Positions 5,524-53,308 of a stretch of DNA of 64,000 nt are shown here, one piece after another. The stretch covers positions 1,282,762 to 1,346,761 of the forward strand of contig OY282459.1 of the NCBI GenBank assembly GCA_958296285.1. Direction: 5' to 3'. Source of the DNA: an uncultured Alphaproteobacteria bacterium. Lineage in GTDB: Bacteria; Pseudomonadota; Alphaproteobacteria; JAPOUT01; G958296285. The notes beneath the pieces are model-generated. The model searched no databases. It had not been told where the DNA came from and saw only the letters and a program-made list of their open reading frames with translations. Made by a program: the position numbers and the translations under genes. Positions within the stretch are counted from its first letter, which is position 1; every line of letters starts with the position of its first letter.

Positions 5524-6260
5524 GGCAGAGGCTGGGAAGCCCGCGCGATCGCGATGAAAGACGCCGCGCGCAAACTCGCCCCTCCGACAAGCGCCCCTTC
5601 CACATGCGGCAGCGACAAAATCGCTTCGGCATTGTTCGGCGAAACCGATCCGCCATAGAGAAGGTGCGCCTCTCCATGCCCTTTCTTGCGCAGAGAATCC
5701 TTGATTTCCTCATGCATCGCCGAAATCTCCCGCCCATTGGGGGTGCGTCCTGTGCCGATCGCCCAAACAGGCTCATAGGCGACCGCCGCGCCATGACGAT
5801 AAGCCCTGTCGGCAAGAGACAGCAACTGCCTTTGAACAACGGCGGAAGCCTCGCCCCTTTCGCGCTCTTTTTCTGTTTCGCCAACGCAGAAGATTGGCAT
5901 AAGCCCTGCCCTCTCCGCCGCCAGAGCTTTTCTGCCAATGACGGCGTCATCTTCGCCCGCGGCGCGCCGCTCCGAATGTCCGACAATGACAGCCTTCGCG
6001 CCGAGATCGGCGAGCATCTCGGCGCTCACAGAACCGGTATAAGCCCCCGAAACTTCCGCATGACAATCCTGCCCCCCCAGAGTCAAGGGCGATTCGGCGA
6101 TCTCGGCGAAGGAGGCGAGAAGAGTCGCCGGCGGGCATAGGAGAATGTCGCAAGAGATCTCCTCGCCATGCGCCCGCAAAAAGCGCATGATCTCCTCCAG
6201 CTCGGCGCGACTCTCGCGCAGCCCGTTCATCTTCCAATTTCCGGCGATGAGCTGTCGCAT
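5520..6260 (-). CDS. tpiA: triosephosphate isomerase
   Basis: N-terminus MRQLIAGNWKMNG and AVIVGHSERR motif. Confidence 0.95.
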   Translation of the reverse strand: MRQLIAGNWKMNGLRESRAELEEIMRFLRAHGEEISCDILLCPPATLLASFAEIAESPLTLGGQDCHAEVSGAYTGSVSAEMLADLGAKAVIVGHSERRAAGEDDAVIGRKALAAERAGLMPIFCVGETEKERERGEASAVVQRQLLSLADRAYRHGAAVAYEPVWAIGTGRTPNGREISAMHEEIKDSLRKKGHGEAHLLYGGSVSPNNAEAILSLPHVEGALVGGASLRAASFIAIARASQPLP

Positions 6261-6305: not shown

Positions 6306-8231
6306 ATGCGGGCGGGACTATCGCATAGGGGTCTTGTCATGCTGGATCGCCTCAGACGCGCCACCGCCCATTGGATGGCGCGCATTCTGATCGGATTGTT
6401 GGCGCTGAGTTTCGCCTTTTGGGGAGTCGGCGATCTTGTCGCGCCGTCTCGTGATCCGGCAATCGCCGAGGTCGGGGACGCCGTCATTCCGCAGACTGTC
6501 TTCCAGCGCTCGCTAAACATCCTCCGCGAAAATCTGCGACAGCAGGGGCGCGCCCTCGCTTTTGACGAAATCCGCCAACTCGGACTGGATCGGCAGGTTC
6601 TGAACCTGCTGACTCGTCAAGAAGCGCTGTCGCTCGGGGCGGCGGCGCTGGGTCTGGACATTTCAGACAGGCGAATCGCCGAGGAAATCCGCGATGATCC
6701 CGCCTTCCAAGGACCTTTCGGCGGATTTGATCGGCAGACCTTCCGCGTGATTCTCGCCGAAGCGGGCTTGAGCGAGCAGCGATTCGCCGAAGAGCGCCGC
6801 AAAGTGCATCTGCGCCGCCAACTCGCCGCGACTGTCCTCGCCTCGCCCCCCGCCTCCGATATTCTCGCCCGCGCGCTCATCAAGCACAGTTTGGAAAAGA
6901 GGATTTTGGAATATGCCCTCCTCCCGATCTCTCTCGCGCCGAAGCCAAAGAGCCCAAATGACGAAACGCTCAAAAAATTCCTAACCCGCGAGCCTTCTCT
7001 CTTCATTCGCCCTGAGCGGCGCGACATTCTTTTGTTGGAGCTGAAGCCGGAGCATTTTTTCTCGTCTCTCGCCGTCTCCGAAGACGAAATCCGCGCCGAT
7101 TACGACGAGCGGCGCATGAGTTTCCGAACCCCTGAAAAGCGCGAAGTAGAGCAAATCATCTTCGCCTCGCGCGATGAAGCCGATGCCGCCCATGCCCGCC
7201 TCAAGAAGGGCGTCTCTTTCGCCGCGATCGCCGGCGAGAAGGGTTTGTCGGAGGAAGATCGGAATCTGGGGCTTCTCTCTGAGCGGGAGTTTTTGTCGCC
7301 CTCTTTGGCGGAAGCGGCTTTCGCTCTCAAAAAGGGCGAAGTGAGCGCTGTCGTGGAGGGGCCTTTGGGGCCGGTTCTGCTGCGAGTTGCCAAAATCGCG
7401 CGAGGCGAGGAGCGAAGCCTCGCTTCCGTCCGCGATCGCGTCAGGAGAGACATTCTGCGCCGCAAATCCGCCGGCGAGATGGAGACCATGCGAAATATCG
7501 TGGAAGACGCGCTGGCAGGGGGCGCGTCTTTGCGCGAAGCGGCGTCTGATCATTCGCTGCCGATCTCGGAACTGAAGGGCGTCTCCGCCGATGGAACAAG
7601 CGCGAAAGGCGCGAAACTGCCCGAGAGGGAGGGGCTGCTTGCCGCCGCCTTCGCCGCCGCGGAACATGAAGAGAGCGCCGCGCGAGAAATGGAAGAGGGC
7701 GGATATTTTTGGCTGGAAGTGGAAAAAATCCATCCCTCGCGCATTCCGTCTTTTGACGAGATTAGGGACGAAGCGCGGAAAATCTGGCGGAAGGAAACGC
7801 GGCGTCTCGCTCTCATTCGGCTCGCGGCGGATCTTGCCGAGCGCGGAAATGGGGGCGAAGATTTGCGCGATCTTCTCAAGAAATATGACCGCGCGCCGTT
7901 GAAGACGCCCGAAATTGGTCGTTTTTTCCGAAGCGATGTTTTTTCGGCGGAGCTTGTGGAGGCGGCTTTCGCAAGACCCGAAGGTCGTTTTGTCGCCGGC
8001 TCTGCCGAGATCGGCGACAGCGTGGTTCTTGTTCGGACGGCGAAGATCGTCAAGCCCTCCCCTTCCCGCGAAGAGGAGAGCGCTTTTAGAGACGCGCTTG
8101 GCGCGCGCTTGGCGAATGAGTTTTTGGAGCAATATGTCGTTTTTCTTTTGGAGCGTTATGGCGTTGTCGTTCACGGCGATGTTTTGGAGAGCGCGGTTCT
8201 GTCTGGCGGCGGCGGCTTGCTCGCGCCATGA
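6306..8231 (+). CDS. ppiD: periplasmic chaperone/peptidyl-prolyl isomerase PpiD-like (SurA N-domain, N-terminal membrane anchor)
   Basis: N-terminal TM helix WMARILIGLLALSFAFWGVGDLV followed by a long SurA-like body. Start moved to MRAGLS (6306) to avoid overlap with divergent tpiA. ppiD-trpE adjacency is common in alphaproteobacteria. Confidence 0.75.
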   Translation: MRAGLSHRGLVMLDRLRRATAHWMARILIGLLALSFAFWGVGDLVAPSRDPAIAEVGDAVIPQTVFQRSLNILRENLRQQGRALAFDEIRQLGLDRQVLNLLTRQEALSLGAAALGLDISDRRIAEEIRDDPAFQGPFGGFDRQTFRVILAEAGLSEQRFAEERRKVHLRRQLAATVLASPPASDILARALIKHSLEKRILEYALLPISLAPKPKSPNDETLKKFLTREPSLFIRPERRDILLLELKPEHFFSSLAVSEDEIRADYDERRMSFRTPEKREVEQIIFASRDEADAAHARLKKGVSFAAIAGEKGLSEEDRNLGLLSEREFLSPSLAEAAFALKKGEVSAVVEGPLGPVLLRVAKIARGEERSLASVRDRVRRDILRRKSAGEMETMRNIVEDALAGGASLREAASDHSLPISELKGVSADGTSAKGAKLPEREGLLAAAFAAAEHEESAAREMEEGGYFWLEVEKIHPSRIPSFDEIRDEARKIWRKETRRLALIRLAADLAERGNGGEDLRDLLKKYDRAPLKTPEIGRFFRSDVFSAELVEAAFARPEGRFVAGSAEIGDSVVLVRTAKIVKPSPSREEESAFRDALGARLANEFLEQYVVFLLERYGVVVHGDVLESAVLSGGGGLLAP

Positions 8232-9772
8232 GCGCCCCTTTCCCTGACGCCTCCGCTTTCCGCGACATTCACAATGCAGGCAAGACGCAGATCGTTCGGC
8301 TGACGCTGCCTGCCGATTTGGAAACGCCTGTCGCCGCGATGATCAAATTGGCGGCGGGGAAGCGCGGCGCGTTCCTTTTTGAATCGGTGGAGGGCGGAGA
8401 GGCTCGCGGACGCTATTCCGTCATCGGCTTCGCGCCGGACGCCATTTGGCGATCTTACGGCGCGAGATGCGAGATCAATCGGCAGGCGGCGCGAGACCCT
8501 GACGCTTTTGAGATTTTGAAAGAGCCGCCTTTGGACGCGCTTCGCCGTTTCATCGCGGAGTCGCGTTTTGATCTGCCTGACGGTTTGCCGTCTTTGTCGG
8601 CGGGTTTGTTCGGCTATATGGGCTACGACATGGCGCGTCATGCCGAGCGTTTCGGGTCTCCGCCGCCTGACGCGATTGGCATTCCGGACAGCGTTTTCGC
8701 GCGTCCGTCTCGTCTTGTGGTTTTTGATTCGGTCAGCGACACGATGATTTGCATTGTTCGCTCGTCTCCGCGCCGGGGGCGCTCGGCTGACGAGGCTTAT
8801 GACGAAGCCTGTCGCGCTTTGCGCGAGATGCGGACGGCTTTGCAGAGGCCTCTGATGCCGAAGGAGCGCGGCGAGGATAGCCAGAGCGATGAAGGCGATG
8901 AAAGCGGCGGGGGCGGCGCGTCTTCGTCTGTTTCCATGCCGGTGCCGCGGTCCAACATGCAGCGCGCGCTTTATTTGGAGAAGGTTCGGCGCGTTAAGGA
9001 GTATATTTTCGCTGGCGACATTTTTCAGGCTGTTTTGAGTCAGCGTTTTTCGGCGTCTTTTTCGCTTTCGCCCATGACGCTGTATCGGTCTTTGCGGCGG
9101 ATAAATCCGTCTCCTTATCTTTATTATTTGGATTTTGGGGATTTTTCGGTTGTTGGCTCAAGTCCTGAGATTTTGGTTCGGCTGCGCGAGGGCGTGGTGA
9201 CGATTCGTCCGATTGCCGGGACTCGTCCGCGCGGGGGGTCGGCGGCGGATGATCTTCGCATTGGCGAGGAGTTGTTGTCGGATCCGAAGGAGCGCGCCGA
9301 GCATTTGATGTTGTTGGATTTGGGTCGGAATGATGTTGGGAGGGTATCGGAGATTGGTTCTGTTCGCGTGACGGAGCGTTTCGCGCTGCAGCGGACGTCT
9401 CATCTCATTCACATTGTTTCCAATGTTGAGGGTGTTTTGCGGCGCGGTTTGGAGGCTTTGGACGCTTTGATGGCGGGTTTTCCTGCTGGGACGGTTTCGG
9501 GCGCGCCGAAGATTCGGGCGATGGAGATTATTGATGAGTTGGAGGATGAGAAGCGGAGTTTATATGCGGGGGCGGTGGGGTATTTTTCGGCGAATGGGGA
9601 TATGGACAGTTGCATTGCCTTGCGGACGGCGTTGGTTAAGGATGGGGTGATGTATGTTCAGGCGGGGGGTGGGATTGTGGCGGATTCGGAGCCTGCTTAT
9701 GAGTATCGGGAGTCTGTGAAGAAGGCGGAGGTTTTGTTTCGGGCTGCTGAGGCTGTTGGAGGCTCCCGTTGA
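8228..9772 (+). CDS. trpE: anthranilate synthase component I
   Basis: 514 aa, chorismate-binding C-terminal domain. The last codons (GGSR-stop) lie inside repeat module X. Confidence 0.93.
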   Translation: MSAPFPDASAFRDIHNAGKTQIVRLTLPADLETPVAAMIKLAAGKRGAFLFESVEGGEARGRYSVIGFAPDAIWRSYGARCEINRQAARDPDAFEILKEPPLDALRRFIAESRFDLPDGLPSLSAGLFGYMGYDMARHAERFGSPPPDAIGIPDSVFARPSRLVVFDSVSDTMICIVRSSPRRGRSADEAYDEACRALREMRTALQRPLMPKERGEDSQSDEGDESGGGGASSSVSMPVPRSNMQRALYLEKVRRVKEYIFAGDIFQAVLSQRFSASFSLSPMTLYRSLRRINPSPYLYYLDFGDFSVVGSSPEILVRLREGVVTIRPIAGTRPRGGSAADDLRIGEELLSDPKERAEHLMLLDLGRNDVGRVSEIGSVRVTERFALQRTSHLIHIVSNVEGVLRRGLEALDALMAGFPAGTVSGAPKIRAMEIIDELEDEKRSLYAGAVGYFSANGDMDSCIALRTALVKDGVMYVQAGGGIVADSEPAYEYRESVKKAEVLFRAAEAVGGSR

Positions 9773-16096: not shown

Positions 16097-16426
16097 CTAG
16101 GATGCTAATTTGAGAAGGATTGCGCCTGTCAGAGTGAAATTCGCTATCATGAAGGTGATGGTGACTCCGAACATCCATTTTAGCAGGCGCATGTCGGCTT
16201 GGACTTCTCCGAAGCGTTTTTCCATGTCTATTCTGAGTTCTCCGATCTGCGCGTTCATATCGGCGCGGAGTTCTCCGACCCGTTCTTCCACGTTCCGAAG
16301 CCGTTCTTCTATGTTCCGAAGCCGTTGCTCATCGCGGTTGGCTTCCAGCGCTTCTATAGCGGCGGTGGCTTTGTGATCGCTGACTTTCGCTTCTTTGAGG
16401 GCATCATAGACTGCGACGAGGCTCAT
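16097..16426 (-). CDS. DUF1640-like coiled-coil protein with C-terminal membrane anchor
   Basis: Heptad-like repeats (LRNIEERLRNVEERVGELRADMNAQIGELRIDMEKRFGEVQADM), then LLKWMFGVTITFMIANFTLTGAIL hydrophobic tail. Internal nucleotide direct repeat ttccgaagccgttcttc x2. Confidence 0.6.
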   Translation of the reverse strand: MSLVAVYDALKEAKVSDHKATAAIEALEANRDEQRLRNIEERLRNVEERVGELRADMNAQIGELRIDMEKRFGEVQADMRLLKWMFGVTITFMIANFTLTGAILLKLAS

Positions 16427-16489
16427 GGTTTATCTCCTTATGGTTGTGTTTTTGTAGCATTTTTGGTTCTTCTGCCGCAATCTTTAGAA

Positions 16490-16650
16490 GAAAGAAAAGG
16501 GGGGTGTGGGGGGTCGGAGACCCCCCGCGAAAAAGGGGGGATCGGGGGGATTCCCCCCCGAAAAGCGCGTGGGTGGGGTGGGGAAAAGAGCATTTGCGAG
16601 CGAAGCGTAAGCGTAGCGAGCAAATGCGACCCCACCCACGCGCCCCCTGC
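16490..16650. repeat. Repeat cluster B: G6/C6 micro-palindromes plus a module Y fragment (about 16500-16560) and module Z (- orientation, about 16565-16645)
   Basis: The Z copy gcgcgtgggtggggtgggg...gcatttgcgagcg...cgagcaaatgcgaccccacccacgcgcc is the reverse complement of 17302-17393. Z is itself an imperfect ~90-nt palindrome. Confidence 0.85.
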
Positions 16651-16672
16651 TCGCAGGAGCTACTGATTCAGA

Positions 16673-17131
16673 TCAAAGATCGCCAAGCCTGCGCCGAAAC
16701 ACTTCATCAAACTTTTCTAATCTCTCCTTGAACCAAGCATATTGCGCGCATCTGTGGTTCATATTTTCCCAATCAGCTTCCTCTTCCCAGCTTTGGGTAA
16801 TAGATGGGAATCCCCATTGCAGTGGTGGAGGTGTGCCAATTTCCCTCTCAATGGCTTCTTTATCTGCATGCAGTTGGTTAAAACATTCCTTAGCGTAAAG
16901 CATGTCGGTGTCGGGGACAGGAAAACTTTTGCCATAGATAGAAAACCTAACAGCTACCTTGCGCGGCGGCGTCTTATAAAAACACGCCCATATGCGAAAG
17001 CCTGCTCTCCCCATAGAGAATCCTAGAGTGCTGCCAGACGACCGACAACGCCCGCGCCCAATATGTGAGTCAGACGCTCTGAGGCACTTAAGCAAACCTT
17101 GCCAATAGAGGCGGTGTTCTTCTTTAGACAT
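16673..17131 (-). CDS. hypothetical protein, DUF4268-like; low-GC (~47%) islet gene
   Basis: 152-aa ORF with a clean start 18 nt downstream of the tRNA-Leu 3' end. GC is far below surrounding DNA, and the ORF sits between inverted Z elements. Confidence 0.55.
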   Translation of the reverse strand: MSKEEHRLYWQGLLKCLRASDSHIGRGRCRSSGSTLGFSMGRAGFRIWACFYKTPPRKVAVRFSIYGKSFPVPDTDMLYAKECFNQLHADKEAIEREIGTPPPLQWGFPSITQSWEEEADWENMNHRCAQYAWFKERLEKFDEVFRRRLGDL

Positions 17132-17149
17132 TTGTCATTTCCGCAAAAA

Positions 17150-17236
17150 TGGTGCGGTCGAGAAGACTCGAACTTCCACGGGGTTGCCCCCACAGCGCCC
17201 TCAACGCTGCGCGTCTACCTATTCCGCCACGACCGC
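17150..17236 (-). tRNA. tRNA-Leu (anticodon GAG), 87 nt with long variable arm, CCA encoded
   Basis: Reverse complement GCGGTCGTGGCGGAATAGGTAGACGCGCAGCGTTGAGGGCGCTGTGGGGGCAACCCCGTGGAAGTTCGAGTCTTCTCGACCGCACCA folds as a cloverleaf with anticodon loop TTGAGGG. Confidence 0.85.
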
Positions 17237-40904: not shown

Positions 40905-43004
<2,100 letters not shown>

Positions 43005-43023
43005 GATGGTCTCCGTATCGTCC

Positions 43024-43494
43024 TTACCAGCGATAATGGGAGAAGGCGCGATTGGCTTCCGCCATGCGGTGGGCGTCCTCGCGCTTCCTGACCGCGCCGC
43101 CTCGGTTGTTGGAGGCGTCTAGGAACTCGCTGCGGAGCCGCGCCGACATGGACTGTTCAGATCGCGCGCGCGCGGCGTGAATAAGCCATGAGATGGCGAG
43201 GGCGCGTCCGCGCTCCGGGCGGACTTCCACCGGGATTTGGTATGTCGCGCCGCCGACTCGGCGCGAGCGCACTTCCGCCGACGGCGTCACATTTTTAAGA
43301 GCCGTGTCAAAAAGTTCCAGAGGCTCCGCGCCGGCCTTTTCGGCGGCTTCGGCGAGGGCGTCATAGAAAATCTTGGCGGAAACGGATTTCCTGCCCTCGC
43401 GCATCATGCAATTCATAAATTTGCTGACGACAACGCTCCCATATTTCGGGTCGGGGATCATTTCGCGCTTATGGGTTCTGCGGCGGCGGGACAT
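43024..43494 (-). CDS. rpsG: 30S ribosomal protein S7
   Basis: [26 protein letters not shown]. Confidence 0.96.
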
Positions 43495-43512
43495 GGCGAG
43501 GTTCTCTTTTCT

Positions 43513-43884
43513 TTATTTCGGACGCTTCGCGCCATATTTGGATCGGCGCTGCTTGCGATCTTTGATTCCGTGCGTGTCCAATGATCCTCGCACGATATGG
43601 TATCGGACGCCGGGGAGGTCTCGGACGCGCCCGCCTCGCACCAAAACGACAGCATGTTCTTGGAGATTATGTCCTTCGCCCGGAATATAGGCGGTCACCT
43701 CGCGCCCATTGGTCAGACGGACGCGCGCGACTTTTCGGAGCGCCGAGTTCGGTTTTTTCGGCGTGGTCGTATAGACGCGCGTGCAGACGCCGCGCTTCTG
43801 CGGACAAGACATCAGCGCCGGCGCCTTATTGTGTCTCACGACTCTGCGGCGCGGATGGCGTATCAGCTGGTTGATCGTCGGCAC
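43513..43884 (-). CDS. rpsL: 30S ribosomal protein S12 (GTG start)
   Basis: (M)[13 protein letters not shown]...[11 protein letters not shown]. The upstream ORF-track extension is rejected. Confidence 0.95.
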
Positions 43885-44095
43885 GCGAGACCCCTTTCCA
43901 TGCAAAGCAAGACTGTCCGACACGCGCGACACGCCTGCCTTTGGGACAGGCATTGTCAAGCGGAAGGAACAGCGCCTCAATTGTTCTTTTCGCCAACGCG
44001 CCGCCGGCGTTTGGACTTCTCCACCGCCCCGGCAACGCGAAGGTGGTCAAAAAATAGCCGCGAAGCCCTCTTCGGTCAAGCCCCAAAGGGAGTTT

Positions 44096-44845
44096 TCATA
44101 CCCAGCCGCGAGACATGCAGGCCGGGCAGTGGCATGAATCTGTTGGAATCTTGTAATGGACCAAGCCGTGCATCACACCCTTATTTTTATCAAAGCGTCC
44201 GGCAATGTGATCAAAATAGCGAGCGTCCTTTTGCTCATAGCGCCTCCAAACCGCCCAAGCCAAGAGATCCGCAATTTGAATCAGGCGCGAAGCGGCGGAA
44301 TCGACAAATAAAGGGACTTCGGCAAGATTATGAAGTTTGCCCCATTGTGTGCCTTGCTGACGAAACCGCTGCGCGAGTCCTTGCAGAGTATTCTCATAAT
44401 GGGATTTATCCATGACGATCAGCCCACGATGAATATCCTGATTTTTTGACGCTGACCGAAAGAGGAACATGTTGAAGCGGTTGCAGATTTCTTCAAAGGC
44501 GTATTCAACAGAGTCGCCAGTCGTTCGCGCTCCCTTATCCACGATGACAGCAAAAGCCTTCACGCTCCAATGCGCGCTGTTAAGCAAATTCAACCCTTGC
44601 TCAATAGTATCAAGACGCTTCTGCCGCGCCATGCCTTTCCATGGCGCTCTCTTTCCTGTCGCCATCAAACTGGCATGAAGCTCAACATCGCCAGGGGCGC
44701 CAATCCCTAGAGACTCAACGAAATTGTCTGCTTCAGAAATGAGGTGATAGATTTGCCGCTCAAAAACCGCAACTCCGGCAAGAACAAAATGGCGCTCATT
44801 CGGGTTCCTAACGGAACCAGAACCGTCCAAATAAAGCAAATACAT
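44096..44845 (-). CDS. DUF3800-family protein, low-GC gene inserted between rpoC and the rpsL leader
   Basis: N-terminal MYLLYLDGSGS (YxDxSG-type motif), C-terminal RLIQIADLLAWAV (QxADL motif), ~250 aa. GC is ~48-50% versus >60% flanks. No ortholog expected at this conserved junction. Confidence 0.6.
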   Translation of the reverse strand: MYLLYLDGSGSVRNPNERHFVLAGVAVFERQIYHLISEADNFVESLGIGAPGDVELHASLMATGKRAPWKGMARQKRLDTIEQGLNLLNSAHWSVKAFAVIVDKGARTTGDSVEYAFEEICNRFNMFLFRSASKNQDIHRGLIVMDKSHYENTLQGLAQRFRQQGTQWGKLHNLAEVPLFVDSAASRLIQIADLLAWAVWRRYEQKDARYFDHIAGRFDKNKGVMHGLVHYKIPTDSCHCPACMSRGWV

Positions 44846-44996
44846 GAAAGACAGCCTCCAAAAAGGCAAATGCAGCCAGGTGGAGCATTAACTCGCTCCA
44901 GCAGACCGTGACAGCCACAGCCTTCCCGACCACAAAAGGAAATTTGGCGCGGCTAACGCCGAAAGTCAAGAACAAAAGCCGAAAGCAACGACAACA

Positions 44997-47900
44997 TTAA
45001 ACGGGATTGCCCTCTTTGACGACAAGATTCTCGTCAGCCTCAGGCGGCGGCAGAACAGGCTGCTCGGAAGAAGGATCCGGGCGAATCGTCTGCCGCGCCT
45101 CCAACTCCTTTCGCGCCTCTTCATCACGGCGCTCCGCCTCGCGGCGCAGCTGCTGAAGCATCCTGCCCGTCCCCGCCGGAATAAGCCGTCCGACAATGAC
45201 ATTCTCCTTCAGCCCCGTCAGCGAATCCACGCGCCCCTTGGCGGCGGCGTCCGTCAGAATCCGAGTCGTCTCCTGAAAAGACGCCGCCGATATGAAAGAC
45301 CGCGTCTGCAAAGACGCCTTCGTAATCCCAAGCAGAACAGGCTTGCCCTTGGCGGGCTTCTTCCCCTCCTCCTCCAGCGCGCGATTCGCGTCTTCAAAAT
45401 CCAGCCTGTCCTCTTGGTCGCCGACAAGAAAATGCGAATCGCCAACCTCCGTGATCTCAACCTTCTGCAGCATCTGCCGAATGATCACCTCTATATGCTT
45501 GTCGCTGATCCGAACCCCTTGAAGCCGATAGACTTCCTGAATGCCGTCTATCAGATAATGGGCGAGAGTCTCCACGCCGAAAATATCCAGAATGTCATGC
45601 GGCGCGGAATGTCCGTCCAGCAGGAGTTCGCCCTTCTCCACTTCGTCTCCGTCCCGCACCAAGAGATGCTGCCCTTTCGGAATGAGATACTTTACCGGCT
45701 CGCCGTCAGAGCCTTCCGGCGGATCAATGCGGATGCTTCGCTTGCTCTTATAGTCGCTGGCGAAGACGACTCTGCCGCTAATATCGGCGATGATCGCGCA
45801 ATCGCGGGGTCGTCTCGCCTCAAACAATTCGGCGACTCGGGGAAGTCCGCCGGTGATGTCGCGGGTTCTGGCGCTCTCCACCGAGATTCGCGCCATGACG
45901 TCGCCGGCGCGAATCGTCATGCCGGGCTCGCAGGAGAGAATCGCGTCCACCGACAGAAGATAACGCGCCTCGCCGCCATTCTTGAGGCGCGAGATTTCGC
46001 CGTCCTTGCCCTTGATGACGAGCGCCGGACGCAGTTCGGCGCTGCCCTGATGAAGATGCCAGTCCAAAACAACCCTCTGCACGATGCCTGTCGTCTCATC
46101 GGCGACCTCCTTCATGGAGATGCCGTCTCGCAAATCCTCATAGCCCACCACGCCGTCCAGATCGGCGATGATGGGCTTGGTGTAGGGATCCCATTCGGCA
46201 AGACGCTCGCCGGCTTTGACCTTCGCCTTGTCGGAGACTTTCAGAATCGCGCCCTGGGTCAATTTGTGAGACATCCGCTCCACGCCTTTGCCGTCCAGCA
46301 GACGGAGCAGAGTCTGCCGCCCCATCGCGACCATGTCGCCGGCGGAATTCTTGACGATTTCGCCCTTCTCAATCAGAATCTTGCCGGCGCAGATCGATTC
46401 CACAAAAGACGCGTCCACAAGCTGCGCCGCCCCGCCAATATGGAACGTCCGCATCGTCAGCTGCGTCCCCGGCTCGCCAATGGACTGCGCCGCGATGATC
46501 CCGATCGCTTCGCCGACATTGATCAGAGTCCCGCGCGCCAAATCGCGCCCATAGCACAGGCCGCAAACGCCCTCGCGCGTCTGGCACGTCAGAGCCGATC
46601 GGACCCGCGCCTGCGACAAATCCGCCTTGCCAATCGCTTCGGCTGTCGCCTCTTCAATCAGCTGGTTCGCCGGGGCGAGAATCTCGCCGCTTTCAGGATC
46701 TTTGATGTCCTCAATCGGGACGCGCCCCAAAAGGCGCAGCGACAGCGGCGTCAAGATTTGCCCGCCCTCCTCCACAGAGCGCAGAACAATGCCCTCCTTC
46801 GCGCCGCAATCCTCCTCCACGATCACGCAGTCCTGCGCGACATCCACCAGACGCCGCGTCAAATAGCCCGAATTGGCGGTCTTGATCGCCGTGTCCGCCA
46901 AGCCCTTTCGCGCGCCGTGGGTGGAGTTGAAATATTCCAAGACCGTCAGACCTTCCTTAAAATTGGAAATGATCGGCGTCTCAATGATCTCGCCGGACGG
47001 ACGCGCCATCAGACCGCGCATCCCGGCAAGCTGCTTCATCTGCGCCGGCGATCCCCGCGCGCCCGAATGCGCCATCATATGGAGCGAATTGTTCGGAGTC
47101 TGCCGCCCCGTCTTTTTGTCAAAGGCGGGGCTGGAAATGCCGCTGCTCATCACATCGGCGACCCGATCCGTGCATTTAGACCAAGCGTCCACGACCTTAT
47201 TATATTTCTCGCCCCGCGTGATCAAGCCTTCGGCATATTGCTTCTCATATTCGGCGGTGAGGCGGCGCGTTTCTTCCACGAGAGCGTTCTTCTCCGGCGG
47301 CACCAGCATGTCGTCCTTGCCCAGCGAAATGCCCGCCTTGCAAGCCTCGCCGAAGCCCATCTCCATAATGCGATCGCAGAAAATCACCGTCTCCTTCTGC
47401 CCGCAATGGCGATAGACGGCATCCACCATCTCGGAGATCTCGCCCTTCGTCAGAAGGCGATTGATCAGATCGTATGACAAATTGGGATGCTCCGGCAGAA
47501 GCTCGCCCAATCTCATGCGTCCCGGGGTCGTCTCCACGATCTCTTCGCCGCGGCGGGCGCGTATTTTGGCGTGGAGAGTCACGACCCCCGCTTCCAAAGC
47601 ATGCTCTATTTCGGGGACGCTTCCGAAGATCATGCCTTCGCCCGGCTCTTTCTCGCGCATCATGGAGAGATAATAGAGTCCCAGAACAATGTCCTTGCTG
47701 GGAACGATGATCGGCGTGCCGTCGGCGGGGTGGAGAATGTTGTTCGTGGACATCATAAGCACGCGCGCCTCTATCTGCGCTTCCAAAGAGAGCGGAACAT
47801 GGACGGCCATCTGATCGCCGTCAAAATCGGCGTTGAAGGCGGCGCAGACCAACGGGTGCAGCTGAATGGCTTTCCCCTCCACAAGGACAGGCTCAAAGGC

Positions 47901-49211
47901 TTGAATGCCCAGCCTGTGAAGAGTCGGCGCGCGATTCAGAAGAACAGGATGCTCGCGGATGACGGCGTCCAGCATATCCCAAACTTGCGGATCGCCGATC
48001 TCTATCAGTTTTCGCGCATGTTTCAGAGTCGTGCAGATGCCATAGGCGATCAAGCGCGAATAGACGAAAGGCTTGAAAAGTTCCAAAGCCATGCGCTTCG
48101 GCAGTCCGCATTGATGGAGTTTTAACTCCGGCCCCACCACGATCACCGAGCGCCCCGAATAATCCACGCGCTTGCCCAGCAGATTCTGCCGAAAACGTCC
48201 CTGCTTGCCCTTCAGCATGTCGGACAGGGATTTTAATGCCCTCTTGCCGATTCCGGTGATGGCGCGGGCGCGGCGTCCATTGTCAAAGAGGGCGTCCACC
48301 GCCTCCTGAAGCATCCGCTTCTCATTGCGGATGATGATGTCCGGCGCGCGGAGCTCGGAAAGACGTTTTAAGCGATTGTTCCGATTGATGACGCGCCGAT
48401 AGAGATCGTTCAAATCGGAGGTGGCGAAACGTCCGCCGTCCAGCGGCACGAGAGGGCGCAGATCGGGCGGCAGCACCGGCAGAACCGTCAGAATCATCCA
48501 TTCCGGACGATTGCCCGAATCGATGAACGCCTCCGTCAATTTGCGGCGCTTGATGAGTTTTTTCAATTTCGCCTCAGAGCGGGTTTTCTCCATCTCGGCG
48601 CATATTTTCTCGCGGAGCTCCTTCAGATCCAACTCGGCGAGAATGGCGCGCACGGCTTCCGCGCCCATGCCGGCGGTGAAAGCGTCTTCGCCGAAATCTT
48701 CCTTTCTCGCCTGATATTCCTCCTCTCTGAGAGTCTCGCCGATTTTGAGCTCCGTCATGCCCGGCTCCACGACGATATATTTCTCAAAATAGAGAACCTG
48801 CTCCAGCTCTTTGAGAGACATTTCCAGCATCAGCGCGATGCGGCTCGGCAGCGATTTCAAGAACCAGATATGCGCCACAGGCGCGGCGAGATCAATATGC
48901 CCCATCCGCTCGCGGCGCGTCTTGGAAAGAGTCACCTCCACGCCGCATTTCTCGCAGACCACCCCCTTATGCTTCATGCGCTTATATTTCCCGCACAGAC
49001 ACTCATAATCTTTGGTCGGGCCAAAAATGCGCGCGCAGAACAATCCCTCGCGCTCCGGCTTAAAAGTGCGATAATTGATCGTCTCAGGCTTTCTGATCTC
49101 GCCATGAGACCAAGCATGAATGCGCTCAGGACTCGCGATCCCGATCTTGATCGCGTCAAAGCCCTGCCCGGCGCCCGCCGGATTCAACAGATTGACAATG
49201 TTCTGATTCAT
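44997..49211 (-). CDS. rpoC: DNA-directed RNA polymerase beta' subunit
   Basis: 1404 aa, NADFDGDQM active-site motif. Confidence 0.98.
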
Positions 49212-52200
49212 TCCTGAACCTCCGGAAGTGCGGGCGCGACAGGCTGCGCGCGAGGAGATTCCACATTTAAGCCGAGAGCGCGCATTTCCATCATCAGGAC
49301 GTTAAAACTCTCAGGGATTCCTGCCGAGAAGGTGTCGCCGCCCTGCACGATTTGCTCATAGGCTTTGGTGCGTCCGGCGACATCGTCCGATTTGATCGTC
49401 AGCATTTCTTGGAGCGTATAGCAGGCGCCATAGGCTTCCAGCGCCCAGACTTCCATCTCGCCGAAGCGCTGTCCTCCGAACTGCGCCTTCCCGCCCAAAG
49501 GCTGCTGCGTCACCAAACTGTAGGGGCCAACGGAGCGCGCGTGAATCTTCTCATCCACCAGATGATGCAGTTTGAGCATATAGATATAGCCGACTGTCAC
49601 ATCGCGCGCGAAAGGATCGCCGGTGCGCCCGTCATAAAGCGTGACTTGTCCCGAAGGATCCAGTTCGGCATTTTTCAGAAGTTCCGCGATCTCCTTCTCC
49701 TGAACCCCCTCAAAGACAGGACCCGCCACAGGAACGCCTTCGGAAAGAATATCGCCGATCGCGGCGGCGTTATCGTCCGAAAGGGAGGAGATTTTCTGAT
49801 CCTGATAGAGATCGGCGATTTTCTCTTTCAGATCTTTGCTGTCGTTGGAATCCCGATAGGCTTGCAAGGCGCGTCCGATCTGCTGTCCCATGCCGGCGCA
49901 GGCCCAGCCCAGATGCGTTTCCAAAATCTGTCCGACATTCATCCGAGACGGCACGCCCAGCGGATTGAGAACAATATCCACAGGCGTTCCGTCTTCCAGA
50001 TGCGGCATGTCCTCTATCGGGAGAATCTTGCTGACCACGCCCTTATTGCCGTGCCGCCCCGCCATTTTGTCGCCCTGCTGAATCTTGCGCTTGACGGCGA
50101 CAAACACCTTGACGACCTTCATCACGCCGGGCGGCAGATCGTCTCCCTGCTGAAGTTTTCCGGACTTGGCGTTAAAAATATCTTCCAGACGCTTGCGCCC
50201 TTCGTCAAAACTGGCGCGGAGCGTTTCCACCTCGCGCATCGCCGGATCGCTCTTGAGGGATATGTCCCACCATTGATGGCGGGGCGTCTCGTCCAGCATG
50301 GCATCGGTGATCCGCGCCGGGCGCTTGTTGATGACGGCTTGCTTGTTCAGAAGGAGCTCGTGAAGACGCTGATAGACATTGCGGCTCAAAACGGCGAGTT
50401 CGTCATCGCGGTCGCGGGCGAGGCGATCCACGCCGTGGCGCTCCACCGAAAGGGCGCGCTCGTCCTTCTCCACGCCGTGGCGGTTGAAAATGCGAACCTC
50501 CACGACCGTCCCTGACGCGCCCGGCGGCAGACGCAAAGAGGTATCCCGCACCTCGGACGCCTTCTCGCCAAAAATGGATCGCAGCAGCCTTTCTTCCGGG
50601 GTCATCGGCATTTCGCTTTTCGGGGTCGTCTTGCCGATCAGAATGTCGCCGGCCTGCACCTGCGCGCCGATATAGGCGATTCCGACTTCGTCCAAATGGC
50701 GCAGCGCTTCTTCGCCGGCATTGGGGACATCGCGGGTGATCTCTTCAGGCCCGAGTTTCGTGTCGCGGCACGCCGCCTCAAACTCCTCTATATGAATGGA
50801 GGTGAAGGTGTCGTCTATGACGAGGCGCTCGGAAATCAGGATGGAATCCTCAAAATTGTAGCCGTGCCACGGCATGAACGCCGCCAAGACATTCCGACCC
50901 AGAGCAAGCTCGCCATGATCAATCGCCTGTCCATCGGCGATGATCTCGCCTTTCTCCACGCGCTGCCCTCTATGGACGAGGGTTATTTGGTTGATGCAGG
51001 TGCTTTGGTTGGATCGCTGGAATTTGCGAAGATTGTAAATATCCACGCCCGGATCGGACGGATCCAGACTCTCGGTCGCCCGAATGAAAATGCGCTTCGC
51101 ATCCACCTGATCCACAACGCCCGACCGCCGCGCCACGACCGCCGCGCCAGAATCGCGCGCGACAACCGATTCCATGCCCGTCCCGACAAGCGGCGCCTGC
51201 GATTTCAACAGCGGAACCGCCTGCCTCTGCATATTGGAGCCCATCAGCGCGCGGTTGGCGTCATCATTTTCCAAAAACGGAATCAGCGCCGCCGCGATGG
51301 AAACGATCTGTCTCGGCGAAACATCTATCAGATCCACTTTCTCCGGCGACACGGTCTCAAAGCCGCCATTGAAGCGGCAATTGATCGATTCCTCGGTGAT
51401 GCGCTTTTTGTCGTCCAGCGCGATGCTCGCCTGGGCGATATGGTAGCGATTCTCCTCAATCGCCGAGAGATAGACGATCTCCTCCGTGACCCGCGCGTTC
51501 TTGACCCGACAATAGGCGCTCTCAATCAGACCATATTGGTTGATCCGCGCATAGGTCGCGAGCGAATTGATCAGACCGATATTCGGCCCCTCCGGCGTCT
51601 CCACAGGGCAGATGCGTCCGTAATGAGTCGGATGGACGTCCCGCACCTGAAAGCCGGCGCGCTCCCGCGTCAGACCGCCGGGGCCGAGCGCCGAGATGCG
51701 TCTTTTATGCGTGACTTCCGAGAGCGGATTGGTCTGATCCATAAATTGCGACAATTGCGAAGAGCCGAAAAACTCCTTGACCATCGCCGTGACAGTCTTG
51801 GCGTTGATCAGATCCTGCGGCATGATGTTGTCAATCTCCACCTGATTCATGCGCTCGCGGACAGCGCGCTGCATCCGCGCCAAGCCCATCCGATATTGGT
51901 TTTCCATCAGCTCGCCGACTGAGCGGACGCGTCTGTTGCCCAGATTGTCAATATCGTCCACCTCGCCTTTGCCGTCTCGCAGATCTATCAGGGTTCGCAT
52001 GACGGCGAGAATGTCGTCTTTCCTGAGGGTTCCCATATCGTCCGGCGCGTCCAGATTGAGGCGGATGTTCATCTTGACGCGCCCCGCCGCCGAAAGATCG
52101 TAGCGCTCTTTGTTGAAGAAGAGATCTTGGAACATTTTTTTCGCGGCTTCGGCGGTCGGCGTGTCGCCCGGACGCATGACGCGATAGACTTCCTGCAGCG

Positions 52201-53308
52201 CTTCTTCCTGATTCTCGCATTTGTCGGCTTCCAAAGTCGCGCGGATATAGGCTTTCCCCAAAGATTCCACATCCAGCACGTCAAAATTCTTGACGCCGCT
52301 CTCTTGGAATTTTTGAGACAATTCGGCGTCTATCTCCGCGCCGGCGGCGGCGAGAATCTCGCCCGTGTCGGAATGGACGACAGCGGACGCCAAATAGCGA
52401 TCCCGCATGGACTCCCACAGCGCGAAGAGACCCTTCTTGCCTTTCTCAGACAAAAGACGGCTGATCCGCCCGGTGATCTTCTCGCCGGCCTCCACAAGGC
52501 GCGTCCCTTCGGAATCATGGAGATCATGCGGCACGCGAAGCCCTCGCAGAGAATCCGGAGACGCCATCATGCGCCAGCCATTCGCCGCGCGCTTATAAGA
52601 CAGAGTCCCATGAAAAGCGCGCAAAATCTCCTCCTTCTCCATGCCCAGAGCGTAGAGCAGAACGGTCGCCGGAATCTTGCGCCGCCGATCCATCCGCGCA
52701 TGCAGAACGTCCTTCGCGTCAAATTCAAAATCCATCCAAGAGCCGCGATACGGAATGATCCGCGCCGCGAAAAGAAATTTTCCCGAAGAATGAGTCTTGC
52801 CCTTGTCGTGATCAAAAAAGACGCCCGGACTCCGATGCATCTGCGAAACGACAACCCGCTCCGCCCCATTAACGACAAAAGTGCCATTGTCGGTCATCAG
52901 CGGCAGATCGCCCATATAGACCGACTGCTCTTTGGAATTCTTCATCGTCTTCGCGCCCGTTTTCTCGTCAATGTCAAAGACGATGAGCCTGAGCGTCAAT
53001 TTGATCGCGGCTTCATAGGTCATGCCGCGATGGCGGCACTCTTCCACGTCATATTTCGGATCGTCAAACTGGTAGTCCAAGAAATGCAGCTCGGCGTTCC
53101 CCTGATAATTCTCTATCGGGAAAGCGCCGCCGAGCGCCGCTTGCAAGCCGATCTCCTCGCGCTTGCCCTTCTTGGGCTTCGCCAGCTGCAGAAAACCGGC
53201 GTAAGACGATTTTTGCACCTCAATGAGATTCGGCATATGCCCGGCGCGCCGACTGTCGCCGAAGAATTTGCGAAGCCTCATGCGCTGAGGCGCGGAAAGA
53301 TGAGTCAT
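49208..53308 (-). CDS. rpoB: DNA-directed RNA polymerase beta subunit
   Basis: 1366 aa. RLRKFFGDS...[13 protein letters not shown]-terminus. Exact start (M1 vs M10) uncertain. Confidence 0.97.

Follow-up and report, generated by a model that had tools for sequence, protein, structure and literature searches.

The partnership between proteins of the DUF3800 family (Pfam PF12686) and structured RNAs is already known, as are the links of these proteins to retrons and to clustered regularly interspaced short palindromic repeats (CRISPR), and it has so far gone unexplained. Weinberg et al. (2017) described eleven structurally unrelated RNA motifs that lie beside DUF3800 genes and proposed no function for them (PMC5737381), and our literature search found no functional study of DUF3800, drum or skipping-rope RNAs. 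In the type VII retrons a reverse transcriptase is fused to DUF3800 or encoded beside it (Mestre et al. 2020, PMC7736814), and the domain also occurs in the CRISPR-associated TPR-DUF3800 proteins (PMC10910872, PMC13594972) and in the DUF3800 protein Csx32 (bioRxiv 10.64898/2026.08.25.746378). DUF3800 has been described as an RNase H fold whose active site is rearranged (PMC10910872, PMC7736814), recognizable by an N-terminal acidic "DE" pair and a C-terminal QxxD motif (PMC7736814). Here we describe a DUF3800 gene and its RNA in a stretch of 64,000 nt from an uncultured alphaproteobacterium (GenBank assembly GCA_958296285.1, contig OY282459.1, positions 1,282,762 to 1,346,761; hereafter "the window", in which all unmarked coordinates are given), where they lie on the minus strand between rpoC and rpsL.

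At this locus both parts of the DUF3800 and DUF3800-VI RNA pair (PF12686 and Rfam RF02915; PMC5737381) exceed their curated thresholds, and the RNA stands immediately 5' of the gene, which is the usual arrangement of the family. The locus adds an instance to a known but uncharacterised pairing of RNA and protein and is not a new kind of system. What it adds is a location at the rpoC stop codon, the exact boundaries of the cassette as read from an empty-site allele, a natural allelic series in one population (empty, full, RNA only) and a layout of promoter, RNA, U-tract and open reading frame (ORF) that is seen across ~40 loci.

An acquired cassette at the rpoC-rpsL junction

The gene was brought to our attention by an earlier note, made by a model from the letters of the window, which described it as a low-GC DUF3800 gene inserted between rpoC and rpsL. 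A 249-aa ORF of ~50% GC does lie there, on the minus strand like its neighbours, and that it was inserted can be read from an empty site in a genome that is 99.5% identical. In this strain (L088, a contig of 1.72 Mb from a separate assembly) the rpoC protein is 100% identical to that of the window (BLASTP) and the DNA of both flanks is 99.4-99.5% identical, with window 52211..44998 corresponding to L088 1..7214 and window 44089..41097 to L088 7224..10215. Between the aligned flanks L088 has only 9 nt, GATTCGCGT, which are replaced in the window by 908 nt (44997..44090, minus strand, GC 0.50). The window thus carries a 908-bp horizontally acquired cassette, seated after the rpoC stop codon and ahead of the promoter region of rpsL. 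The left junction falls within the rpoC stop codon, which is TAG in L088 and TAA in the occupied allele (44999-44997), its third base, 44997, being the first base of the insert. The right junction falls 6 nt past the DUF3800 stop codon and 10 nt ahead of a promoter-like element, TTGACC-17-TATTTT (44079..44051, minus strand, a consensus match), of the native rpsL upstream region. The foreign segment had been put at ~1.1 kb, but of this only 44090..44997 (908 nt) is foreign; the remaining 205 nt (43885..44089, minus strand) are native and are also present in L088. An assembly artefact was considered and rejected, because both junctions recur, identical to those of the window, in an independent third assembly from the same population (L095).

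The ends of the cassette are bare. Neither terminal inverted repeats nor a target-site duplication were found at the mapped ends, where the only repeats are short and of chance level, and the 9 displaced bases of the empty allele occur nowhere in the insert. No integrase or transposase was found with the cassette. Insertion sequences and transposons are poorly matched by an insert that has no repeats, lost 9 target nt instead of duplicating them and is present as one copy in the window. The cassette entered by a non-homologous event in which those 9 nt were lost. Single-nucleotide polymorphisms (SNPs) between the window and L088 are evenly spread at ~0.5%, with none within ~390 nt of either junction, and there is consequently no sign of import with diverged flanks; homologous recombination of this kind was rejected for want of a rise in SNP density near the junctions.

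The composition of the insert is foreign, as the earlier note had held. The host GC of ~0.58-0.62 in the flanks drops to ~0.50 over 44200-45000, and the overall host GC is 59% as against 50% for the ORF. The GC content at third codon positions (GC3) is 0.67-0.73 in rpoB, rpoC, rpsL, rpsG and fusA and 0.516 in the DUF3800 ORF (total GC 0.497), and with a GC3 of 0.52 versus ~0.7 the gene has not been ameliorated to its host.

The third assembly adds a further allele. In L095 a stretch of ~635 nt of the DUF3800 ORF (44790..44156, minus strand) is deleted, and L095 7216..7623 retains the promoter, the RNA (64 bits) and 18 codons fused out of frame, leaving a frameshifted ORF of 44 aa. The site therefore has three states in the host population: empty, full, and ORF-deleted with the RNA retained. 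Over the 273 nt of insert retained in L095, two positions differ from the window, a divergence about equal to that of the flanks, which indicates that the insertion predates the split between the two strains. In the tree of the three strains, which is star-like, private sites number 28, 28 and 10 in 7214 nt, and neither the root nor the direction of the event can be read from it.

The host is a deep-branching alphaproteobacterium, with an rpoC that is 75% identical to the nearest other sequence and ~70% identical to those of Tepidicaulis, Parvibaculum and Rhodoligotrophos. In Tepidicaulis (L090 7370..8537) the rpoC-rpsL spacer holds a DUF4344 gene and a 91-aa ORF, so other cargo is accepted at the junction in related bacteria; the Parvibaculum spacer measures 740 nt, and in the closest rpoC relative rpsM-rpsK-rpoA follow rpoC instead of rpsL. 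Because spacers and downstream genes vary in this way within the clade, the premise that the junction is normally free of cargo was overstated. A DUF3800 gene at the rpoC junction was found in neither Tepidicaulis nor Parvibaculum nor the closest rpoC relative, and rpoC, rpsL or rpsG lie within 5 kb of the homolog in none of 87 loci; an ortholog at this position was thus found nowhere among the relatives or the homolog loci. Exact-sequence look-ups of the DUF3800 and rpoC proteins of the window returned no record. The position between rpoC and rpsL is most likely incidental, the genome being small and gene-dense and the site a gap between transcription units where an insert is tolerated.

The DUF3800-VI RNA and the layout of the unit

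The gene had been thought to travel without integrase or partner. It has no integrase, as said above, and its partner is a DUF3800-VI RNA directly upstream of the ORF (44872..44933, minus strand), in which an outer helix, P1, encloses the hairpins P2 and P3. The RF02915 match (44932..44873, minus strand; 40.6 bits against a gathering score of 35, E ~1e-6) ends 27 nt ahead of the DUF3800 ATG on the same strand. With a covariance model built in this analysis the window RNA scores 64 bits, and it folds at -37.7 kcal/mol (z = -3.0). Over 38 distinct sequences, compensatory changes are seen in 11 of the 22 pairs, and 99.0% of the cells are paired as compared to 37-51% when the partners are slid, values that none of 500 shuffles reached. 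The RNA is 60 nt long and highly conserved in sequence, its sole variable part being a loop of 5-8 nt. Of 80 genome loci, ~74 have it ahead of the gene and in the same orientation according to our model, which also detects it in phage Marin and on a Paraburkholderia plasmid, at a protein identity of ~40%. One copy is present in the window and in most loci; two tandem RNAs ahead of the DUF3800 gene were seen only in the IMG/VR viral contigs L096 and L097 (5838..5947).

Ahead of the RNA, the insert carries a promoter-like element of the sigma-70 type (44941..44969, minus strand) recognized by consensus and conservation. It consists of a -35 box, TTGACT (44969-44964), a 17-nt spacer and a weak -10-like box, CAAATT (44946-44941), which lies ~7 nt ahead of the 5' end of the RNA. 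A box of the TTGAC(A/T) type recurs in the aligned loci, 34-39 nt ahead of the base at which pairing in the RNA starts, with a -10-like element after it; this spacing predicts that the RNA begins at or near the transcription start. Since the cassette brings a promoter box that is conserved in its family, read-through from rpoBC is not needed for its expression. The spacer between RNA and ORF (44846..44871, minus strand) is U-rich and includes a ribosome-binding site, GGAGG (44859-44855), that is covered by a small hairpin, GCCUU/GAGGC. Across loci, this spacer measures 21-50 nt from RNA to start codon and is conserved in neither sequence nor length; in 28 of 38 loci, the 9 nt that follow P1 include at least five T. 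Aligned with its homologs, the window shows DNA similarity that starts at the RNA (in two loci already at the -35 box) and stops near the end of the ORF, and no conservation was found upstream of the -35 box or past the stop codon in the compared homologous loci. The cassette represents the standard unit of one DUF3800 subfamily, comprising promoter, RNA, U-rich spacer, ribosome-binding site and ORF.

Some other arrangements were encountered among the homologs. Locus L036 has its RNA (5860..6000) downstream of the DUF3800 ORF, as an independent unit that is equipped with a near-consensus promoter (TTGACA-17-TAATAT) and a strong intrinsic terminator; the gene that follows is read from the opposite strand. 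Locus L011 has a second, orphan copy (6738..6890) made up of promoter, RNA and five DUF3800 codons; the sequence joined to it resembles what lies 3' of the intact copy, and a fragment of an IS-type DDE transposase is adjacent. Two same-strand DUF3800 paralogs lie ~3 kb apart in a locus from the Arenicellales (L079 5001..5684 and 8790..9446), and no RF02915-type RNA was detected at them. On a ColE1-type plasmid of E. coli with Rop and RNAI (NZ_CP075065.1, 5128 bp; L092 2810..2925), which encodes a homolog of 39% identity, the ORF is preceded by a helix enclosing two hairpins, in the manner of P1-P2-P3, a strong intrinsic terminator (AAAAAGGCCGCGCATTTGCGCGGCCTTTTT) and a ribosome-binding site. 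No RF02915 match was found on this plasmid, and the fold may therefore be an undescribed variant of the RNA partner. A scan of metagenome contigs for orphan RNAs with a 17-nt RNA pattern gave 120 loci, of which three were confirmed by the covariance model; all three have the DUF3800 ORF downstream, the other matches were due to chance, and no orphan count was obtained. A scan of viral contigs gave only 2 loci.

The DUF3800 protein

The gene (44845..44096, minus strand, ATG at 44845) encodes 249 aa beginning with MYLLYLDGSGS. Its assignment to DUF3800, first made from the letters, is confirmed by a match to the full PF12686 profile (positions 1-149 of 149; 68.2 bits against a cut-off of 21, E=1.6e-18), and a structure prediction agrees with the guess of an RNase H-like fold: the predicted core is RNase HII-like, and in structure its closest matches are to RNase HII and HIII and not to transposases. 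The residues D7, E29, D146, Q190 and D193 are invariant; D7, E29, D146 and D193 are candidates for the DEDD catalytic tetrad of type 2 RNases H, and Q190-x-x-D193 is likewise invariant as a motif. At position 8, where the "DE" pair has its second residue, most of the subfamily, the window protein included, have Gly and a few members E or D. An invariant C-terminal His/Cys cluster (H226, H230, C238, C240, C243) looks like a metal-binding knuckle. Many residues are invariant, and the mean column identity of the protein alignment is 65%. Searches of NCBIfam and of PDB sequences gave nothing significant, and those of PHROGs matched only families without known function.

Distribution and genomic settings

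A word-indexed search returned 1719 proteins at E<=0.001, and the best 120 of the 1719 are 59-74% identical to the window protein and ~250 aa long. A full scan with a hidden Markov model found 1922 clusters (50% identity) among 1.84 billion representatives, and nearly all of these are stand-alone proteins. In species-representative genomes, close homologs are found in Bryobacterales, Nitrospirales, Binatia, Alpha- and Gammaproteobacteria, Spirochaetia and others, as solitary genes in unrelated neighbourhoods of many phyla, with one copy per genome in nearly all loci. The GC content of the gene is below that of its flanks in 81 of 85 loci, by a mean of 9.4 points, and ~9 of 80 copies are decayed (seven frameshifted, two 5'-truncated). 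Integration next to tRNA genes was considered and rejected, a tRNA adjoining the cassette in only 1 of 60 loci.

Distant homologs (39-42% identity) occur on 52 plasmids and in two Pseudomonas phages. On ColE1-type plasmids of 5-7 kb from E. coli and Klebsiella, the homolog is one of four annotated genes; a small plasmid of E. coli SE11 (NC_011407.1) also bears a homolog. In Pseudomonas phage Marin (L093 3079..5744) the homolog and its DUF3800-VI RNA lie downstream of a CI-like repressor, on the same strand, with only a BRCT-domain gene between repressor and homolog, a position typical of exclusion genes expressed in the lysogen. The family moves between phyla and between types of replicon as a unit of promoter, RNA and protein.

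Comparison with known systems

The layout resembles that of the type III toxin-antitoxin and abortive infection (Abi) systems, e.g., ToxIN, AbiQ and CptIN. Both combine a promoter, a structured RNA, a terminator or U-tract and an ORF for a protein of nuclease fold; both are small, solitary and low in GC, occur on plasmids, phages and chromosomes, and have an RNA that can outlast the protein gene. Where a type III system would have its terminator, between RNA and ORF, a U-run follows P1 in 28 of 38 loci; it is weak in the window copy, and the E. coli plasmid homolog has a strong terminator. ToxN-type toxins are Kid/MazF-like endoribonucleases, and their antitoxin is a tandem repeat array processed by the toxin. 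Since the repeat RNA and the ToxN-type fold are both missing here, the pair is better described as working like a type III system than as a member of that class.

The retron VII, TPR-DUF3800 and Csx32 systems share with the window the pairing of DUF3800 with a non-coding nucleic-acid partner, in their case in a defence setting, as well as the RNase H2-like fold and the QxxD motif. Unlike them, the window gene has no reverse transcriptase, CRISPR array, TPR domain or kinase near it and encodes a stand-alone, single-domain protein with an RNA of its own. Type 2 RNases H (HII, HIII, H2A) have the fold predicted for the window protein, but their identity to it is 10-18%, the Glu of their "DE" is Gly8 here, the C-terminal His/Cys cluster is extra, and the window gene is not a housekeeping gene. 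A further comparison is that with free-standing homing endonuclease genes and "minimal mobile elements", which are likewise single genes with their own promoter between highly conserved genes, polymorphic among close strains and devoid of repeats. In contrast to homing endonucleases, the window protein lacks a homing-endonuclease fold and its homologs elsewhere do not lie between conserved genes; the flat SNP density near the junction is a further difference from both kinds of element.

Proposed function and alternatives

The overall best explanation of the locus, to which we assign a probability of about 0.5, is that of an acquired promoter-RNA-DUF3800 cassette that works as an RNA-controlled nuclease pair. 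Taken alone, the functional part of this proposal is put forward only tentatively. It is the most economical model, in which a potentially harmful nuclease would be restrained or controlled by its RNA, as in toxin-antitoxin or abortive-infection modules. RNA and protein would form a self-contained pair in which the RNA holds the nuclease in check. The RNA would be made in excess, with most transcripts ending at the U-tract or terminator ahead of the ORF, and the RNA part would be able to persist where the ORF has been deleted. A nuclease restrained by its RNA would account for the joint travel of the two parts, which are found together on plasmids, in a phage immunity region and at sites scattered over chromosomes. 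A mobile or selfish character is indicated by the solitary homologs in unrelated contexts, their low GC, the decayed copies and the occurrence on small plasmids and beside cI in a temperate phage. An action of the RNA on the protein is suggested by the layout, the stand-alone RNA of L036, the tandem RNA copies of the two viral contigs, the plasmid terminator, the plasmid and phage settings and the RNA-only remnants, namely L095 and the remnant of L011, in which the RNA was kept after loss of the ORF.

A number of points weigh against this proposal. The RNase H fold is not of the ToxN type, and a single three-helix RNA takes the place of a processed repeat array. The second carboxylate of the RNase HII "DE" pair is Gly, so that catalysis is putative, as are toxicity, RNA-protein binding, the transcript ends and phage defence. 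Calls of promoters and terminators are consensus matches, and the U-tract is weak in the window copy and absent in 10 of 38 homologs. There are only two cases of retained RNA, and deletions that start just inside the ORF could arise by chance; some of the seven frameshifts may be errors of long-read assembly. PADLOC-DB 2.0 gave no significant match, the best being PDC-M38B (E=0.041, 11.6 bits).

It is possible, if on balance doubtful, that the RNA is a cis-acting 5' leader only, e.g., an attenuator or an autoregulatory site for the DUF3800 protein or a metabolite, and that the protein is an accessory nucleic-acid-processing enzyme of benefit to the host. RF02915 is classed as cis-regulatory in Rfam, and in ~74 of 80 loci it has the place of a leader, immediately ahead of the gene in the same orientation and 21-50 nt from its start codon. 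The attenuator-like U-run that often follows P1 and the small hairpin over the ribosome-binding site in the window copy also fit a leader; the strong conservation of the protein (a mean column identity of 65%) indicates purifying selection. A leader should not, however, stand apart and downstream of its ORF with its own promoter and terminator, as the RNA of L036 does, nor persist in remnants without the ORF. The spacer, unconserved in sequence and length, shows no conserved expression platform, and DUF3800-associated RNAs are found on either side of their genes and in either orientation (Weinberg et al., PMC5737381). The patchy spread across phyla, the steadily low GC and the frequent decay are, moreover, unlike a housekeeping role.

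Two further explanations concern the movement of the gene and not the action of the RNA. The cassette might be an autonomous mobile element whose RNase H-fold protein, perhaps directed by the RNA, drives its own insertion or homing (compare the bridge RNA of IS110, the omega RNA of TnpB/IscB, or a free-standing homing endonuclease). This we consider very improbable: nearly every genome has one copy, nothing is conserved beyond the -35 box or the stop codon and the element therefore has no defined ends, nine target bases were lost at insertion, and there is no recurrent target, with a tRNA beside the cassette in 1 of 60 loci. The 60-nt RNA varies only in its loop of 5-8 nt and hence offers no plausible guide segment, and the best structural matches are RNase HII/HIII rather than transposases, with no second catalytic domain. 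Alternatively, the gene could be ancestral at the site and have been deleted in the empty strain. The star-like tree leaves the root unplaceable, the insert predates the split between the window and L095, and L095 demonstrates that deletions occur inside the cassette. Yet such a deletion would have had to restore an in-frame TAG stop codon and spare the rpsL promoter region, the 9 nt of the empty site are not derived from the cassette, GC3 is 0.52 and not ~0.7, and no other genome has the gene at this position. Loss of an ancestral gene is accordingly an improbable account, and even if it were right the gene would be foreign, merely acquired somewhat earlier. Insertion is favoured over loss by the composition, by the nine bases that are unrelated to the cassette and by the lack of the gene at this position in other genomes.

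Neighbouring genes and other features of the window

The order on the minus strand is rpoB, rpoC, the DUF3800 ORF, rpsL, rpsG, fusA and rpsJ. rpoB extends over 53308..49208 and rpoC over 49211..44997; rpsL, with a GTG start, extends over 43884..43513 and is followed by rpsG and fusA. A weak hairpin with a T-run (44074..44061, minus strand) overlaps the rpsL promoter-like element. The end of fusA overlaps the start of rpsJ at 40905..40908, and there is no tuf between these genes here. A second kilobase of low GC (0.507), at 16097..17236, encodes on its minus strand a 152-aa protein that matches DUF4268 (E=1.3e-7) and a 109-aa protein with the appearance of a coiled coil or a membrane-spanning segment. 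The two small ORFs abut tRNA-Leu(gag) (17150-17236) and may form a further small islet of acquired DNA.

Conclusions

The empty-site allele gives base-exact limits of a moving unit that comprises promoter, RNA and ORF and carries no mobility gene. The consistent layout of the family, from transcription start through RNA and U-tract or terminator to ORF, points to an RNA-controlled nuclease. Culturable homologs are at hand on 5-7 kb plasmids of E. coli and Klebsiella and in a temperate phage of Pseudomonas. With regard to the host, the site shows that the rpoC-rpsL junction tolerates cargo in this clade; it does not amount to new operon biology. A bolder interpretation, which we regard as unlikely on present evidence, is that the pair represents a new class of two-part module, in which a stand-alone nuclease of RNase H2 fold would be checked or directed by a three-helix RNA of ~60 nt made from the same promoter, the whole serving in addiction, abortive infection or defence and spreading as a naked cassette of ~0.9 kb. 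If this were true, the eleven unrelated DUF3800-associated RNA motifs would be alternative partners of one family of nucleases, and a class of bacterial non-coding RNAs that have been orphans since 2017 would be explained.

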